DNA of 64,000 bases, taken from the NCBI GenBank assembly GCA_030265395.1, contig JARFYF010000022.1:18473944-18537943 (forward strand). Reading direction: 5' to 3'. Of the stretch, positions 29,265 to 43,512 are shown piece after piece. Every line of letters begins with the position of its first letter. Within the stretch, counting starts at the first letter, position 1. Source of the DNA: Rhina ancylostomus. Lineage: Eukaryota. The notes beneath the pieces were generated by a model that saw only the letters and a program-made list of their open reading frames with translations, was not told the origin of the DNA and made no database searches. The translations under genes were made by a program, and so were the position numbers.

Positions 29265-32200
29265 GAATTGTGGACTGCAGATTCCTCAATATGGATATGG
29301 ATATGGATGTACTATTTTAGGTCAGGGTGAATTCAATAAAAAACAATAAGAACAGCTGTTTGAGGTGGGTGAACACCCGTATCCCACCTTAAACGAATTA
29401 ATATCCAACTAAATACTTTTTTTATTTACAAAATAAAACAATAAAAGCACCAGTGCAATAAAAACAACAGTACACAATTTGGGTAACTGTTATTAGTTTT
29501 CAAGGTATATTTAATAACCTTATTAATTAACTTTGCACACATGTTGGTGTCAAATCAATGCATGTTTGATTTTCTGTTGGTTTTCACACTTTTCGAAATC
29601 TATTGCTTAGCTTGTAAAGTAAAAGCAAATTCATCGAAGTAATATAGCATAAAAATATGGTATTTATTTTACATACAATATACAATACTTTGCGACAATA
29701 TTACCTAAGTTTCCCCGAACTGCGCTTTTTTTCTTGTTTGACTTCATTAAGATGTTCATGAAAGGACATGGTAAATGTCAGTTGAAGTTCATTTCCGTTG
29801 CTAAAAAGCAGGTAGTCTGCAGTTCACAGTAGTTTATGTTTTACTCTGAAGTTTGGGCATAAATTGGGGAAACTATTTTTTTTCTTTAAATGTGTGCTTC
29901 ATTAATAATAAACTGCACTCGGGATATATTTGATTCTGTAACGGACTGCAATCAGCATTGAATGGGTTGTTCTGGATATTATTTCAGTCAGCAGGTCATT
30001 AAGCGGGAGAGAATATCATGTTCAGCAAAGTTGTAGACAACGTCCGTAAAACAAAACTGTAGCGGTTTTAGGCAAGTATTTCTGTGTTTCTACATTCTGT
30101 TGCTGCGTCTCCCAGTGTAATTTTATTCTCAAACTTCTTGCACTTTTCGGCAATAATTCATCTGTATTGCGACAGAAATGAACTTTGACAATTACTGATA
30201 TAATTCTGTCCAGGAATTATTATTATAATATTACACACTTGAGTAGTTTAAGATAGAATAATCCATTGGATCCTTCGAAATTGCTATTGTCTAGTGGAAA
30301 CAGTTGGATCTTTCGATTTTGAACACAACGGACCGTTTAATTAACGAATTATGGCAAGTAGGAAATCAGAGCTTAAAAGGTAAAACGGTATTCAATTGAG
30401 AAATGTTTTTTTTTAAGCATAGCTCTTGTAGAGCCGTTTGTCTTTAATCACACCCATTCGAACTTTGCGTGAAACTAACATAACTCTTAAGGATCTTACA
30501 CAGAACCAAGAAACGTCTTGTGCAGTTTGCATTAAAAAACTGCAGTTAAATACACGTTCTGAATTTTGAACTCGAAGTTAATAGGACATCCTGCAATTAT
30601 CTGAAAGGGAAAAAAGAATGAGATTTTGTTTTTCTCTGTGATTCGTCTAGGATTCCCTACAAAGCTTTACAGCCCCTATAATTGTACACATAAGAGGTTA
30701 ATACCACGTACTGGGCTTTCAGTTTTAATCGTGAATGGATATAATAACACATTGTTCTGACATAGGCAACACTATGATACTATATTTAATTAGCTCATCT
30801 ACGATTATACCAACCCCGTTGACCATGCCATGTTCTCATAGTTATTGAATTAAATTTAGCCGCAGATTCAAATATGTTACTCTTTTCGAACCACTGGAAA
30901 TGAAATTCAGGGAGTGATGTACTTTAAGGGAAAATATCGAAACACGTGTTATGGGAAAGGAAAATGTTTGATGCTAAGTTTGGAAAATGTGGTGAGTATA
31001 ATGTGGTTAGAATGAAAACAAAATAAACTGCCATTACGAATAAGGATTACCGGGCCACATGACTTGTGATATGCATCATATATTATGCGTATTATTCCTA
31101 AGGTCACCAGCGCCGTTGTATTGGTGCACTGTATTTGGCGCATTGAACTGTATTATACCCAGCATTGTATACACCGCATACACTGACTTTAGTGTAGTTG
31201 CCAGATCCTACCGAACCCCATATGCTACACCGATTCTCAGGTAGTCTTGGTGTCGGGACTGTCTTCCATCCACTCCAATTCCGTGGGTTCTGAGGTGACT
31301 GACCACGCCAATGTAAGTTTCGTACACTCTGCCACAGGTGGGGTAAGAGGCGTTTAGAAGGGCGGGCAGGTGAGTGATTCAGGAGTTGGTGCCTCTTTCT
31401 GTCACTCATGCTGATGCTCTGTGCATTCCCAATGGACGTGACCTTCTCAATTCCATCCCAAATATTTCTTCTCCATTTGAGTGGTCATGGACGAGGGATT
31501 CCAATGATTTGGTGGGGATGCTACACTTATTCAGGGAAGCATGGAAAACCACCTGGGACCGTGTCCTTTTGCCCGCGTGACAGAAGTGAGTAATCGCACC
31601 TGCGGTAGGAGCTGACAGAGTGTATCTAGGGCCGCAGTGCTGGGAATGTTGGCCTGGGAGAGGACACTGATGTGGGTTTGGCTATCCTGCCAATGGATAC
31701 GGAGGATTCTGCAGAGACAGTACTGGTGGTATCTCTCCATGTTTTGAGGCGCCTGCTGCAGGTCGTCGTTGCCTCGCAAGTGTCCATGAGGGTGGAATAA
31801 CTGAGGTCCAGCAGAGCATGAGCCGTGTGCTGGATTTAAGGCCTTGATTTTCAAGCAACATTTTTTTAAACTGGCTCAATGCTTTGCGAGTGCAGTAAAG
31901 GCAATGAAGAATTTTATCACTGACGTGTGCATTCATAGATGAAGTGATCCACATTTTTCAGGGTCTCAGAATGGATATTGTCAGAGGGTAGTGCCGTACA
32001 GTAGGCAGTGGAGCTTTGTTTTGCAGCTCTGAAGTGAAAGGCCCATTCTCATATATACTTCATTAAACGAGTTGATGATGACTCAGAGCTCAGCCTTTGA
32101 ACGTGTGTATAATCAAATATCATCCGCATTCCACAGATGGATTACCAACATTATCTAAAATGGAAGTGATGTATATGTTTGACATGTAGATTAGCTCCAC

Positions 32201-32295
32201 GCTATTAGGACCCTTGTTGGAAATGGAGCCCAGGTGCAGCTTTACAAAGAGCAATAATGAGAGTAACGTTGGGGTGACAACGCTGCCTTCCTTGA

Positions 32296-32515
32296 CGAAA
32301 GACACGATGACGCTGGAGGAACTCAGCAGGCCAGGCAGCATCTGTGGAGAAAAGCAGGCGGGCAACGTTTCGGGGCAGGACNNNNNNNNNNGGACCCTTC
32401 TTCAGTTGACCGCCTGCTATTCTCCACGGATGCTGCCTGGCCTGCTGAGTTCCTCCAGCATCATCGTGTTTTTTTTTATCTAGATTCCCACATCTGCAGT
32501 CCTTTGATTCTCTGG
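32296..32515. mobile_element. Young Penelope-associated fold-back element with hammerhead core and 17-bp TSD
   Basis: Inverted arms of about 65 bp (32302-32366 and 32405-32469). Direct repeat aacgctgccttccttga at 32279-32295 and 32516-32532. Confidence 0.9.
32361..32408 (-). ncRNA. Candidate minimal type I hammerhead ribozyme core
   Basis: Minus strand reads CTGAAGA-A-GGG(TCC..TGC)CCC-GAAAC-GTT. A 10-N gap lies in loop II, with GGAC repeated on both sides. Stem I is imperfect in this copy. Confidence 0.55.
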
Positions 32516-34259
32516 AACGCTGCCTTCCTTGATGGGTCTTTCGTGGAACAATCAGTTTGGAACATAATTTGCATGCCATCATGAAGTCAATAAGGAGAAT
32601 ATCCTTGGGGATGTAAATTCAAGGTAAAATTGATAGAATTAACAACTCTTGTGAGTCAATAAAAGACCATGCATAGTGGTTGATGATGCTTCCTGCGTTT
32701 TCTCTTGGAGTTAACGCTGATGACATTCATGTCGGTCATGTCTGTTCACTAGCCTAATGGCAGTTTTAAAAAATATATATATATATATAAGTGGCAAGAG
32801 GAATACAATTTACGGAAGTTGGAAATACTCACCTTGACTGGACCCAGATGATACGCTCATTGTTGGGCATCTACTTCAATCCCATTGCCTCATTCCCCTC
32901 CCTATCCTATAGACTCACTGACCTACAGTTGCCGCAATTCCCTCTCTCGTTTATAAACATCAATGCCCCACACGCAGTGATGGCTTTACCTGACAGGAAT
33001 AATTAATAAGCGCAAGCAACGTAAAAATGATGGATCTTGGGGAAGTGTGCCCAGCTTCTAGGTAATCCAACAAATGATCTCTACTAGATCCCAGATTTAA
33101 TTTCGACGTGCAGACCCATGTTGAGGCAAGAAGGAAGGTAGACCGTGGTTCTTGCTGTTTTTGTACCCCAGCTCCTGTCTGATGACAACAACCGAGAACC
33201 CTCCGTTTCCCGAGAATTGAAAGATGATTCGTCCGCCAAATAAATCTGGCACTCACAAAATTCAACATTAAGGCTGAGGTGGGGTATATTCAGGGGCATG
33301 TGCTTTCCACACTCTACCAGTGACTGAAGAAAGCCAATGGTTTTGCGTTTTGCTCAGAACTCGAGGTATCCCAGAGTTATCAATATTCTCTACACTCATT
33401 CAGGCAAGATCTGATGAAATACATAAATGGTTTATTTCAGCAGCTGTGTTCTTTTAGATACTAGTTCCTGCATGGATAACGAAAAGGGTTTAGAATCATT
33501 AAACTGTGTAGGACGAAATAAGGTGTGTGATTAATCCACCCGAAAACGAGAGGTCCCATTTAACATAATAGTTAAGGAATGAACTTGAGACACCTTTTGG
33601 ATTGAATCGCCGTAGCTTTTTTTTGAGGACCAGTATAAGCGCAGACAAGAAAATGGAAACTTCATGTGGTTCGCAAGAGAGGAAAATTCGCCAAGAACGT
33701 GTCTAAATCAAAATAATCGAGTAATCATTGCCCATCACAATTTAACCGGCAGTTTTCTTAACCTCAAAAACTCACTTGGCAGTTCGTTATAAGTCCTATT
33801 CTGGAGTGAAATATTTAATTACATGTTCTTCATGGGTAAATTCTTCACAGCCTCAGGTAAAAAGCAACACTGGACACTCTAATTACAAGACAATGTCGGA
33901 GAGTGTACCGCTCCACAGAATATGCATAGGTGTATTTTGATCAAATGAATTCTAACTACATTTAAACATGCTTAATAACATCCCTTTAAAAAAACAGGTT
34001 ATCTCTTGAACAGAATACGTGTTTACACAATATTCGGTGCCAGCTTCATCTGTTGCAGTAAACACCAAAGGCACTAACTGTTGTAAACAAAACGACATTT
34101 TAAGGAAACAAAATTGTTTTCCCCAAATGTTTATCATGTGATAACGTTACCACGGTCTTTACTTGTTAAATAAGCGTGTGATCTGTTCATGAAATTAAAG
34201 GTTTGGAATTTTATGTTTACAATTTGGCGATCTACATCATTCAAAGAATAGGGACTGAT

Positions 34260-36575
34260 CAAAGTCAAAGTCAAAGTCGAGCTTATTGTCATCTGCATAA
34301 GTACATGTGTGCACAGGTGCAATGAAAGACTTACTTGCAGCAGCATCACAGACACACAGCATCATATAAGCAGCATTCACAAGAAAGCATAAATTAAACA
34401 TAAATTATACCCAATTTTTACCAGAAAAGACAATCAGAAAACAAAAATAACAAAATCCATTTTAGTGCAAAATGGTCAAAGTGGCTTATGTTAAAGTGTA
34501 GTGATTAGGTTTCGCCGGCTGGTTCAAGGACAGAATGGTTGAAGAGGTGGAACTGTTCTTGAACCTGGTAGTGTGGAACTTCAGGCTTCTGTACCTCCTG
34601 CCAGATGGTAGCTGCAAAAAGATGGCATGGTCCAGATGGTGGGGATCTTTGATGACGGATGTTGCCTTCTTGAGGTGGCTAGTGCTTCCTGTAGATACTG
34701 CTGATGGTGGGGAGGGATGTGCCCATGATGCTTTGGGCAGAGTCCACTACTGTCTGTAGCTTCTTACATTCCTGCACATTCGAATTGCCGTACCAGACCA
34801 TGATGCAACCAGTCAGGATACTTACAACAGTACATCTCTAGAAGTTTGTTAGTGTTCGGTTTTGTGACAAGCCGAACCTCCTTAACCTCCCAAGAAAGTA
34901 AGGGTGCTGATGCACTTTCCTTATGATTGCATCTATGTGCTGAGACTGGGACAGGGCATCTGATATGTTAGCGCCCAGGAATGTAAAGCTGCTGACCCTC
35001 TCCACCGCCAATCACCCAACGTAGACCAGTGAATGTTCACCCTTCTTCCCCTTCCTGAAGTCAACAATCAGCTCTTTAGTTTTGCTGACATTGAACGAGA
35101 GGTTGTTGTTGCAACACCACTCAACCAGGTGTCCTATCTCACTCCGGTAAGCTGACTCATCACCACCTGTGATGCGACCAACAATAGTAGTGTTGTCAGC
35201 GAATTTGAAAATGGCATTGGGCTGTGCTGAGCCTCACAGTCACGNNNNNNNNNNNNNNNNNNNNNNNNNNNNNNNNNNNNNNNNNNNNNNNNNNNNNNNN
35301 NNNNNNNNNNNNNNNNNNNNNNNNNNNNNNNNNNNNNNNNNNNNNNNNNNNNNNNNNNNNNNNNNNNNNNNNNNNNNNNNNNNNNNNNNNNNNNNNNNNN
35401 NNNNNNNNNNNNNNNNNNNNNNNNNNNNNNNNNNNNNNNNNNNNNNNNNGTAGTCAATGAGCAGCAGCCTGACATATGAGCTTCTGTTGTCCAGATGGTC
35501 CAGAGCAGAGTGAAGAGCCAGAGGAATCACATCTGCTGTTGACCTGCTGTGGCAGTAAGCAAGTTGAATCATATCCAGGTCATCTATGAAGGCAGGAGTT
35601 AGTTCGCACCATAACCAACCTCTCGAAGCACTTCAGTATGGTTGATGTAAGTGCCACCGGACAGTAGTCATTGAGGCAGCTCATCAAGCTCTTCTTGGGC
35701 ACTAGTATAATAGAGGCCTTTTTGAAGCAGGTGGGAACCTCAGACCGCAGAAGTGAGAGGTTGAATATGTCTGTAAGTACTCCAGCCAGTTGGTCACACA
35801 GATCTTTAGTACTTGGCCAAGTACGTCACCTGGAACCACCAGATGCCTTTCATAGATTCACTCACTTGAAGGATGCTTGGCCATCAGCCTCAGAGACTGA
35901 AATTACAGGGTCATCTGGAGATGTGGGGTCTTGTGTGGGTGTGTCGTAGTTCTCCCTATCAAAACATGCATAAAAGGCATTGAGCTCATCCAGGAGTGAT
36001 GGGTCATTGCAACTTATGCTCTCCATCTCACTTTTTAGGAAGTTATATTGTGCAAACCCTACCACAGCTGTTGAGTGTTCATCTGTGAATCCAGTTTAGT
36101 CTGAAATTGCCTCTTTGTGCTCACGATGGCCTTCTGGTGGAAGAAGCACAGCCAAGTGGTCGGATTTACCAAAGTGCGGGTGAGGGATGGAGAAGTAGGC
36201 ATTCTTGAATGTGGTATAGTAGTGGTCAAGTGTGTTGAGTCCTCTAGTATTGCAGGTGATGTGTTGATAGTAGTTAGGCAGAGACTTCTTCAAGCTAGCA
36301 TGATTAATGTCTCCCGCCACCATGTGACAGGCATTAGCGTACACTGCTTCATTCTTGTTAATCACAGCACTTAGTTCCTCTAGTACTAGCTTGACATCTG
36401 CTTGAGGTGAGATGTAGATTGCAGTCAGGGTGATGGTGGGGAACTCCCGTGGAAGGTAGAATGGTTAGCATTTCACTGCCAGGTGTTCCACATTGGGGCA
36501 GTAGGAATGGGACAAGATCGCCACATCTGTGCACCATGATGTGTTTATCATAAGACAGATGCTGCTGCCTCTTAG
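34260..36575 (-). mobile_element. Rex1/Babar LINE, internally deleted, containing a gap
   Basis: APE remnant VAGDINHASLKKSLPNYYQHITCNTRG.NTLDH...FGKSDH; RT remnant QLAYCHSRSTADVI.LALHSALDHLDNRSSYVRLLLIDY; (GACTTT)n tail at 34260-34280. Confidence 0.92.
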
Positions 36576-39774: not shown

Positions 39775-41320
39775 AAACAAATAAAACTGCAGATGCTGGA
39801 ACCTGAAACAAAACAGGAATCTGAAACAAAAACAGAAATGCTGGAAAAACTCAGACAGTCAAACAGCATCTGTGGAAAGAGAAACCAGCCAATGTTTTAG
39901 GTCAGTGATCCTTCCTCAGAACTAGTTCAGAGGTATACTTAAATGATCAGTGTTTCTTGAGGTAGTGTTCTAACCGTTTCCAGTGCTCCACACTCAATGC
40001 CATGCATCAGCACATGCATGCTCTTAACTTCTCTCTAACAATACTGACTTACACTGTCTCAGAGCTATCATGGCCCATGGTTCTATAGTTCTATTTCATT
40101 CTTTGTTGCATCCATTGCTGCAACAGGCAACTCTTTTATTTCTTTCTGAGATAAAGGACCACAAGCTCACCTAGCTCTTGACTTCAAATACCCTACCTCA
40201 GCTTTCTCCCCCTTCATTTTTTTCCTGACTCCCATATCTTCCCAGAGCTCCAACCCCTGTGATGTTTTCACCATCTTCCCTGATCTGCCCCTCTCTGACT
40301 CGAAGCAATCAGTCTTCAGCAGAGTTCTCCGCTTTGTACCCTCATGCCCACATGGGTCTGACATGACGTTGAACACTTCTTCCACTGCCTCCATCTCAAT
40401 GCCCACTTCTTTACCCAGGAATCCTCACCCCAGACTGTTATCCCATCTCCAGTATTCTGGATCCATCTGGATCCCCCTTCCTTTCTCTCCATGGCCTCCT
40501 TTGATTTATTCATCATGAATTGCTGACATGTCATTGACCAACTTGACTTCTGTGGTCCCCTCACTCACTCCAACCTACCTCCTGAATGTGAGTGACTCTG
40601 TTCACTGCAAACCAATCCAGATTTTGTTATCTAACCCACGCTGCTGTAGTTTGGAAAAACGACCTCTGCCTTGTAGCGGCCAAATGTAAGCTTTCAGATA
40701 CATACTCATACCTCCCTCTGGAACCACAATCCCACCAGCTAACATCAGGCCATCAGACTGCAGTAGATCTCATTTCCTCAGGAGATCTTCCTACTACAGC
40801 CTCCAACCTGGCAGTGCCCCAACCCTGAACTGCCCACTGCTGCTAACTACCCAAGATCCACAAACAGGACTGTCCCAGTAAACCTATTGTTTCAGCCTGC
40901 TGTTGCCCAGCTGAACTAATTTCTTCCGACCTTGACTCAATCCTGTCCCCTCTGGTCCAGTCCCTTCCCACTTACGTCCATGACACTTCTGATGTCCTCT
41001 GCCATTTTGACATTTTCTGACTCCCTAATCCCAATCGGCTCAGCTTCACCATGAAAGTTCAATCCCTTCACACCACTAACCCACAACAGTAAGGGCTGAG
41101 AGCCTCCATTTCATCTGGAAACACTCCTAACCACACCCCCTGCACCCTCTCAACAATATGCCCACTTGGTTGGTGGATCTTGTCCTTATGCTGAACAACT
41201 TCTCTTTCAATTCCATTCAGTTCTCAGGAAGGGTTGCTGACCTGAAATGTTGATAGGTTTCTGTTTCTGCAGATGCTAGCTGACTGGATGAATTTATCCA
41301 GCATTTCCTTTTTTTATAGT
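39775..41320 (+). mobile_element. Penelope-like retroelement relic (RT remnant between inverted pLTR copies)
   Basis: Frameshifted remnants PCDVFTIFPDLPLSDSKQSVFSR.L.FVP, AAVVWKNDL...LSDTYSYLPL, LPKIHKQDCPSKPIVSACCCPAELISSDLDSILSPLVQSLPTYVHDTSD, FTMKVQSLHT and LVLMLNNFSFNS. pLTR copies at about 39775-39925 (minus) and 41217-41320 (plus). Confidence 0.88.
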
Positions 41321-43319: not shown

Positions 43320-43512
43320 AAACACAAAATACTCCAAATGCCAGAAACCTGAAATGAAACAAAATAGGCTGGAACTACTCATCTGTGGAGAGGGAAACCG
43401 TTTTACCAGTATTCTGATGAAAAGCCATTGACCTGAAAGATTAATTTACTTTTCTTCTCTATGGATGCTGCCTGATCTGCTGAGTATTACCAAAAATGTC
43501 TGTTTTATTTGT
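43320..43512. mobile_element. Decayed Penelope-associated fold-back element
   Basis: Inverted arms (atctgtggagaggg / tctctatggatgctgcctgatctgctgag); core CTGATGA at 43414-43420 and TGACCT-GAAA ending at 43438. Confidence 0.75.

Follow-up and report, generated by a model that had tools for sequence, protein, structure and literature searches.

An inverted pair of truncated Penelope-like pLTR ends in Rhina ancylostomus and the arm ends of its family

The insertion units of endonuclease-bearing (EN+) Penelope-like elements (PLEs) have been described as combining an inverted truncated copy, a one-sided tail of 30-40 bp and target-site duplications (TSDs) of variable size (PMC2377424; PMC3846280; PMC8557442), together with a pLTR hammerhead, a TATA and an Inr-like motif (in Adineta Pen2a) and assembly trouble at the centre of the unit (PMC3846280; PMC8557442). 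The minimal hammerheads of metazoan PLEs share a common core, an unpaired base between positions 9 and 10.1, a G10.1-C11.1 pair and a palindromic ACGU that replaces helix III (PMC4209133). Neptune-clade PLEs encode an RT, a CX2-5CxxC linker and, at the C-terminus, a GIY-YIG domain. Poseidon PAc of Anolis belongs to a different clade from the family described here; it has two RT starts a tail apart, its hammerhead cleavage is dispensable, no RNA-seq ends are reported at the cut site, and inverted units are not discussed in the portion of that paper on which this comparison draws (PMC11167929). In the same work the tail is explained as the distance between two RT start sites, both target strands are cut and extended, and hammerhead mutants of the anole PLE still insert in vitro (PMC11167929). 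Two further systems invite comparison. Non-LTR retrozymes are non-coding, pLTR-related and equipped with a type I hammerhead (bioRxiv 10.64898/2026.07.22.740005), and in the twin priming of L1 the second target strand primes a second cDNA, resulting in an inversion with a TSD, while complete 5' ends carry an extra G (PMC11702581).

The window, a 64,000-nt stretch of R. ancylostomus contig JARFYF010000022.1, contains an insertion with the layout of the EN+ PLE units, namely pLTR arms, an inverted 5'-truncated copy, a one-sided tail, a TSD of variable size, a minimal hammerhead and a gap at its centre; it differs from them in having arms of only about 100 nt and no ORF. It is almost certainly composed of two 5'-truncated pLTR ends of a high-copy PLE placed head to head. 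In family numbering, where 0 is the first base after GUU, the tail-less arm (32296..32405, sense on the minus strand) runs from -28, the hammerhead C3, to about +69, and the tailed arm (32405..32513, sense on the plus strand) from -3/-2 to +103, with the single G at 32405 common to both. Only the tailed arm bears the 34-nt PLE tail (32480..32513), which was absent from the initial annotation and prolongs the right arm by 34 nt. Two extra bases relative to the family 3' ends, GG at 32514..32515, separate the tail from the TSD and are likely untemplated. The inverted segments proper (32298-32366 and 32405-32473) are 69 nt long, 93% complementary and 38 nt apart, close to the arms of about 65 bp first noted. 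Relative to the family, the tail-less arm shows 6 substitutions in 86 aligned nt, and the tailed arm 5 in 106 plus a 3-nt T expansion.

The hammerhead relic occupies 32360..32405 on the minus strand, with CUGAAGA at 32405-32399, helix II across the assembly gap and GAAAC-GUU at 32371-32364. The minus strand of the centre reads CUGAAGA-A-GGGUCC[10 N]GUCCUGCCCC-GAAAC-GUU, in agreement with the core that had been picked out initially, and the predicted cut falls between 32364 and 32363. By its sequence, the motif is a minimal type I hammerhead of the Penelope type, as had been proposed. The first base of the right arm is 32405/32406, which puts it 2-3 nt ahead of the cleavage-site equivalent and agrees with the earlier estimate of about 3 nt.

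That the insertion was retrotransposed into its present site is well supported. The left (32279..32295) and right (32516..32532) copies of the 17-bp direct repeat are identical at 17/17 positions, and the chance of such a 17-mer near both element ends is about 4e-7; the left copy has a single-copy equivalent in a paralogous LINE (L294). The host sequence is an older, decayed LINE RT region with approximate limits 31559..32586 on the minus strand, interrupted at a QG-type motif. When the element and one TSD are removed in silico, the flanks read ...PIKEGSVVTPTLLSL... and the restored frame reads PIKEGSVVTPTLL. The restored flanks align across the junction to the paralogous LINE fragments L292 and L294; the scores are 79 and 71, where the highest among 100 shuffles reached 41 and 34, so that both the TSD and the splitting of a LINE RT motif, as the initial annotation had it, can be regarded as real. 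By its motif, the host LINE may be RTE-like; Pfam returned just a weak RVT_1 match (E 0.2) for a LINE paralogue. Decayed LINE-like endonuclease and RT frames also lie on the minus strand of the window at 35134-36464.

The family to which the arms belong is abundant. Its 31-nt core has 641 exact copies in the source genome (reversed control, 0) and two body anchors have 1050 and 379. Searching the same genome at the DNA level yielded 2086 candidates, of which 40 were scored. Longer copies run upstream through the pyrimidine-rich pLTR into a GIY-YIG end, a CX2-5CxxC linker and a Penelope-type RT, and the arms can therefore be identified as pLTR ends of an EN+ PLE. A pLTR 3' of an ORF with RT and GIY-YIG is seen at L042/L241, L246, L252 and L258; L246 reaches from the end of the RT across all of the 469-nt reference (82% identity), and L258 is a fold-back laid out like the window copy, its sense arm being of sufficient length to include RT sequence. 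A 360-aa frame at L248 matched Atlas clusters with PF26215, PF01541 and PF00078 (score 0.94). Pfam found 0 families for 4/4 short ORF pieces and, in another set, weak RVT_1 matches for 2/6; its best match to decayed ORFs was a weak RVT_1 at E 0.03. Of 20 partner loci, 10 have the linker between RT and endonuclease, in two cases with an internal stop, and on this feature the parent element would be Neptune-like. All partner ORFs seen are fragmentary, and an intact autonomous parent was not found among the 20 loci, which were drawn from 150 scored matches.

Among 177 arms of the family, 109 have the long end (+103), 49 the short end (+69) and 11 another end, with 8 ending at gaps; thus, 158/177 arms stop at one of two fixed positions 34 nt apart. 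TSDs were found in 29/84 scanned copies and measure 10-16 bp (median 13), against 17 bp in the window copy.

The centre of the insertion is interrupted by a 10-N assembly gap (32382..32391) inside the helix II region. On the family reference the sequences on either side of it overlap by 4 positions, which implies that no family sequence is missing, and it may conceal a duplication; with that overlap alone the element would measure 206 bp, and a concealed duplication would make it longer. Since 14 of 26 10-N gaps among the family loci show no such overlap, assembler habit is no guide to what the gap holds, and none of the matching contigs listed clearly spans it. A short, non-coding sequence with inverted arms and a central run of N could in principle be a MITE derived from a DNA transposon, or an artefact of assembly at the gap. 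The arms, however, are asymmetric and show homology with an RT-GIY-YIG element at its 3' end, the TSDs vary from 10 to 17 bp, gap-free hairpins of this kind number 35, and an independent species has both flank junctions. The link to the RT-GIY-YIG element, the gap-free hairpins and the 3'-end and TSD data refute either origin, to which we attach practically no credence.

Whether the hammerhead could act is a separate matter. In the family fold, helix I has 3 bp and helix II 4 bp. In the window copy, helix I has no 5' strand and carries substitutions in its 3' strand; helix II is substituted as well. When the gap is collapsed on the 4-nt overlap as a hypothesis, C3, G16.2, U16.1 and U17 are predicted to pair in the fold-back at P >= 0.98, such that helix I is not formed with the core and the NUH triplet free, as an active hammerhead would have them. 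The hammerhead of the window copy is thus predicted to be inactive. No hammerhead family was matched in an Rfam search of the window locus, and a match to RUF6-5 (32311-32485; E 5.7e-8) scores 47 bits against a gathering score of 70, is therefore sub-threshold, and arises from the long hairpin alone. With the minimal PLE hammerheads (PMC4209133) the focal family shares the core, the unpaired base between 9 and 10.1, the G10.1-C11.1 pair and the palindromic ACGU; it differs from them in its GUU triplet and an A at position 7, where a sister PLE family has GUC and U. The sister family (CUGAUGA, 5-bp helix I, 417 exact cores) would, by its motif, be the best candidate for an active ribozyme. It also shares the 34-nt tail type and the 5'-end peak discussed below (L261-L290, L295-L414).

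In a test set beforehand, the core was expected to be more conserved than its flanks. It is not. Core positions changed among copies at a rate of 46/630 against 187/2646 for neighbouring positions (p 0.86); purifying selection on the core among copies is consequently rejected, and the pattern fits the expectation of neutral decay. That two families retain the core tells no more than that it was kept by their parent elements.

A more direct record of how the copies were made is found in the 5' ends of the arms. The focal sample comprised 180 loci from the first 100 listed matches per anchor; 3 duplicates were removed, and 83 of the 177 arms were dropped because their 5' ends lie at N gaps, leaving 94. 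For the sister family, 120 loci less 1 duplicate, and less 26 of 119 at gaps, left 93. The loci are first listed matches on a few contigs, picked by exact anchors, dropping arms at gaps biases the sample towards short, simple copies, and breakpoints are ends of local alignments, uncertain by a few bases. Within these bounds, 17 of the 68 focal ends between -60 and +31 fall at -32..-28, where 3.7 were expected (p 1e-7), and none of 5000 scan simulations reached this peak. The sister family has 18/64 ends in the same interval (expected 4.4). By comparison, the neighbourhood of the cleavage site holds 5/68 focal ends at -3..+3 (expected 5.2), none of the 68 at exactly 0, and 8/64 sister ends at -3..+3 (expected 6.2); the two families pooled give 16 ends against 13.2 (p 0.25). 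The whole core is kept in 47/94 focal and 64/93 sister arms.

These data bear on the reading first given to the insertion, that of a young non-autonomous ribozyme element spreading as a unit, with its RNA 5' end possibly set by hammerhead self-cleavage. The start of the long arm 2-3 nt from the cut position agrees with it, as do the few decayed CpGs of the window copy, a pooled post hoc window at -2..0 (11 ends against 5.6 expected, p 0.03) and another count in the GUC-bearing sister family (8/29 ends at -3..+3, expected 5.2). The weak post hoc excess at -2..0 makes a small class of cleaved templates possible, though not the rule. The arm of the window copy, however, matches the template for two bases upstream of the cut, which would occur by chance in about 1 in 16 cases; focal ends show no excess at the cut site, half of the focal arms keep the core whole, and the peak of ends lies 28-32 nt upstream. 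Moreover, every hairpin junction is unique, and the insertion is common to other species. Self-cleavage of a mobile unit is thus very improbable as an account of this locus, and spreading as a unit and youth of the element are largely refuted. Junctions had also been expected to be placed non-randomly with respect to GUU, and they are, but the peak is not at GUU. Overall, the ends suggest that most inserted cDNA was copied from uncleaved RNA.

The position of the peak suggests a source for this RNA. In the family sequence, TATATA begins at -63 and the A of a TCAGTC lies at -32; such a distance, 31 nt, is typical between the TATA and the Inr of a promoter. Of the read-through copies, 91/138 have an AT-rich word at -63..-59. 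This arrangement is unlike that of D. virilis Penelope, for which a TATA-less internal promoter has been described. Copies that start at A(-32) carry a G in place of the family C before it in 11/15 cases (background 0.30, p 7e-4, several families pooled), and in 6/9 outside the set in which the signal was first seen. An extra G of this kind marks capped full-length L1 copies (PMC11702581). On these sequence features, the 5'-end peak probably marks the start of a capped RNA at a TATA/Inr-like site. Among copies that start at -31 (e.g., L087, L102, L317, L385), a T precedes the start in 16/29 (background 0.35, p 0.02), possibly an untemplated A on the cDNA or a misread modified first base.

An alternative source of the pile-up at -32..-28 is a 3' splice site, made up of a pyrimidine tract and CAG, or a structural stop of the RT. 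The tract and CAG are conserved in the focal and sister families and an intron of D. virilis Penelope extends to the 5' side of helix I (PMC4209133), which makes splicing a rival to a capped start; some sister-family copies also carry, by eye, 10-19 nt of filler before their start. Many ends, however, include the A and G of the supposed acceptor, and no common upstream sequence was seen among the copies. Of the 9 solo peak copies that could be scanned, 7 have their TSD no more than 4 nt from the end, leaving no room for an upstream exon, and both the extra G and the 31-nt TATA spacing agree with a capped start. Splicing or a structural stop is therefore considered unlikely.

Thirty-five gap-free hairpins were present among the 94 resolved arms, with distinct junctions in 35/35, and the junction of the window copy recurs in 0/412 other loci. 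With every junction distinct, a self-amplifying MITE or non-autonomous family is rejected, and the non-autonomous element that the initial annotation had seen in this insertion loses its standing as a mobile unit. The same applies to a non-LTR retrozyme. Retrozymes are direct tandem units with a hammerhead in each (bioRxiv 10.64898/2026.07.22.740005), whereas here the pair is inverted, one core is incomplete and there is no amplification as a unit. The 25 fully classed hairpins consist of 23 long+short, 1 long+long and 1 short+short, although only 43% would be mixed if arms were paired as expected from solo copies (p 4e-7), of which 14 have short and 31 long 3' ends (n=48). The arm that reaches further 5' is the short one in 11 hairpins and the long one in 10, with 2 ties; the impression by eye that the tail-less arm has a lead is thereby rejected. 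The window copy, with one tailed and one tail-less arm, is of the common type.

The hairpin is probably an insertion by-product, likely of a single event carried out by the parent's own RT-endonuclease, its hammerhead being predicted inactive. The predominance of tailed plus tail-less pairs (23/25) suggests that the arms were primed from both target nicks, a reading that we favour by a small margin of belief over its negation. The inverted arm may have arisen otherwise, by fold-back self-priming of one cDNA or from an antisense template, with the endonuclease trimming one arm by 34 nt. Self-priming with endonuclease resolution has been suggested in print (PMC3846280; PMC8557442) and, combined with trimming, would also yield one long and one short arm. 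If the first strand were fixed, though, the unpaired centre would always belong to the tailed arm, while it is seen on 10 long and 11 short arms with 2 ties, and in the window copy it belongs to the tail-less arm; a hairpin intermediate that can flip would evade this objection. Trimming is further at odds with the +69 end on solo copies (14 short against 31 long of 48) and with in vitro work on the anole PLE, in which a +69-type end is an RT start (PMC11167929). Self-priming is accordingly judged rather unlikely, if less so than splicing is for the 5' ends.

Under two-nick priming, the proposed course of events would be as follows. The parent RNA would be capped and transcribed from the TATA/Inr-like promoter, starting 32 nt before the GUU site, and longer read-through RNAs would serve as templates too. 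The endonuclease would nick both target strands 10-17 nt apart, and each nick would serve the RT for internal priming, one start being at +103 and the other at +69. Each cDNA would either terminate early or reach the capped end and run off after some 100-135 nt; end-joining would link the two into an inverted repeat with a one-sided tail. As the templates appear to be mostly uncleaved, the hairpin would be a dead-end by-product. The process would resemble L1 twin priming, except that L1 cDNAs cover adjacent parts of the RNA (PMC11702581) and those here cover the same part from two fixed starts. More broadly, and with somewhat less than even confidence, the stubs may be viewed as a fossil record of the vertebrate Penelope cycle, in which capped, uncleaved RNA is copied, both nicks are primed by one complex, strong-stop-like cDNAs are ligated and the hammerhead acts on the capped leader. 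If this is true, the hammerhead would serve the capped leader, in decay or translation control, instead of the making of templates.

The hairpin layout itself has already been published, and the window insertion is an unremarkable dead copy of a kind already known. Strict pairing of long with short arms and a 5'-end peak with an extra G characterize the family studied here and are absent from the passages of PMC2377424, PMC3846280 and PMC8557442 on which the comparison with EN+ PLE units draws. Likewise, two-nick priming, the 5'-end peak, the cap G and the pairing rule were not found in the PLE literature searched, a collection with few subscription journals. Real interest is confined to what the family as a whole records of the replication cycle, the single insertion being ordinary. 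The family statistics point to a precise RNA start site and to a rule of pairing (one tailed, one tail-less arm), and bear on the role of the hammerhead and on the origin of inverted pLTRs with one-sided tails.

The age of the insertion can be approached through other species. In organism D, contig record 25 spans 31643-32337 with 54 differences over 685 nt, and record 32 spans 32491-32704 with 24 over 214 nt; in organism B, record 15 spans 32449-32874 with 18 over 428 nt. As the junctions are present in the contigs of B and D, the insertion is older than splits at about 4% and 8-11% flank divergence, and it could serve as a clade marker, being common to several species. Of 192 positions aligned with the family majority, 11 differ in the copy, near the family non-CpG average of 7%, so its non-CpG divergence is typical. 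At 2-4% change per copy, 25-50% of 17-bp TSD pairs would still be perfect. In favour of youth, only 1 of 8 CpGs has decayed (7/8 kept) against about 60% in the family; the copy (32296-32513) may hence be of less than average age or sit in a stretch of low methylation. On balance, the description of the element as young is not supported.

Other copies show minor variations. By eye, filler of 10-19 nt was seen between the TSD and the element start at L310, L358, L379 and L052, and that of L310 partly repeats the target. At L111/L112 and at G000:C12:20633782-20633961, pLTR units lie in direct tandem, about 150-165 bp apart; such units could permit dimeric, retrozyme-like hammerheads. The window itself holds two more decayed pLTR/hammerhead fragments of related PLE families, at 39800-39905 and 43410-43485.
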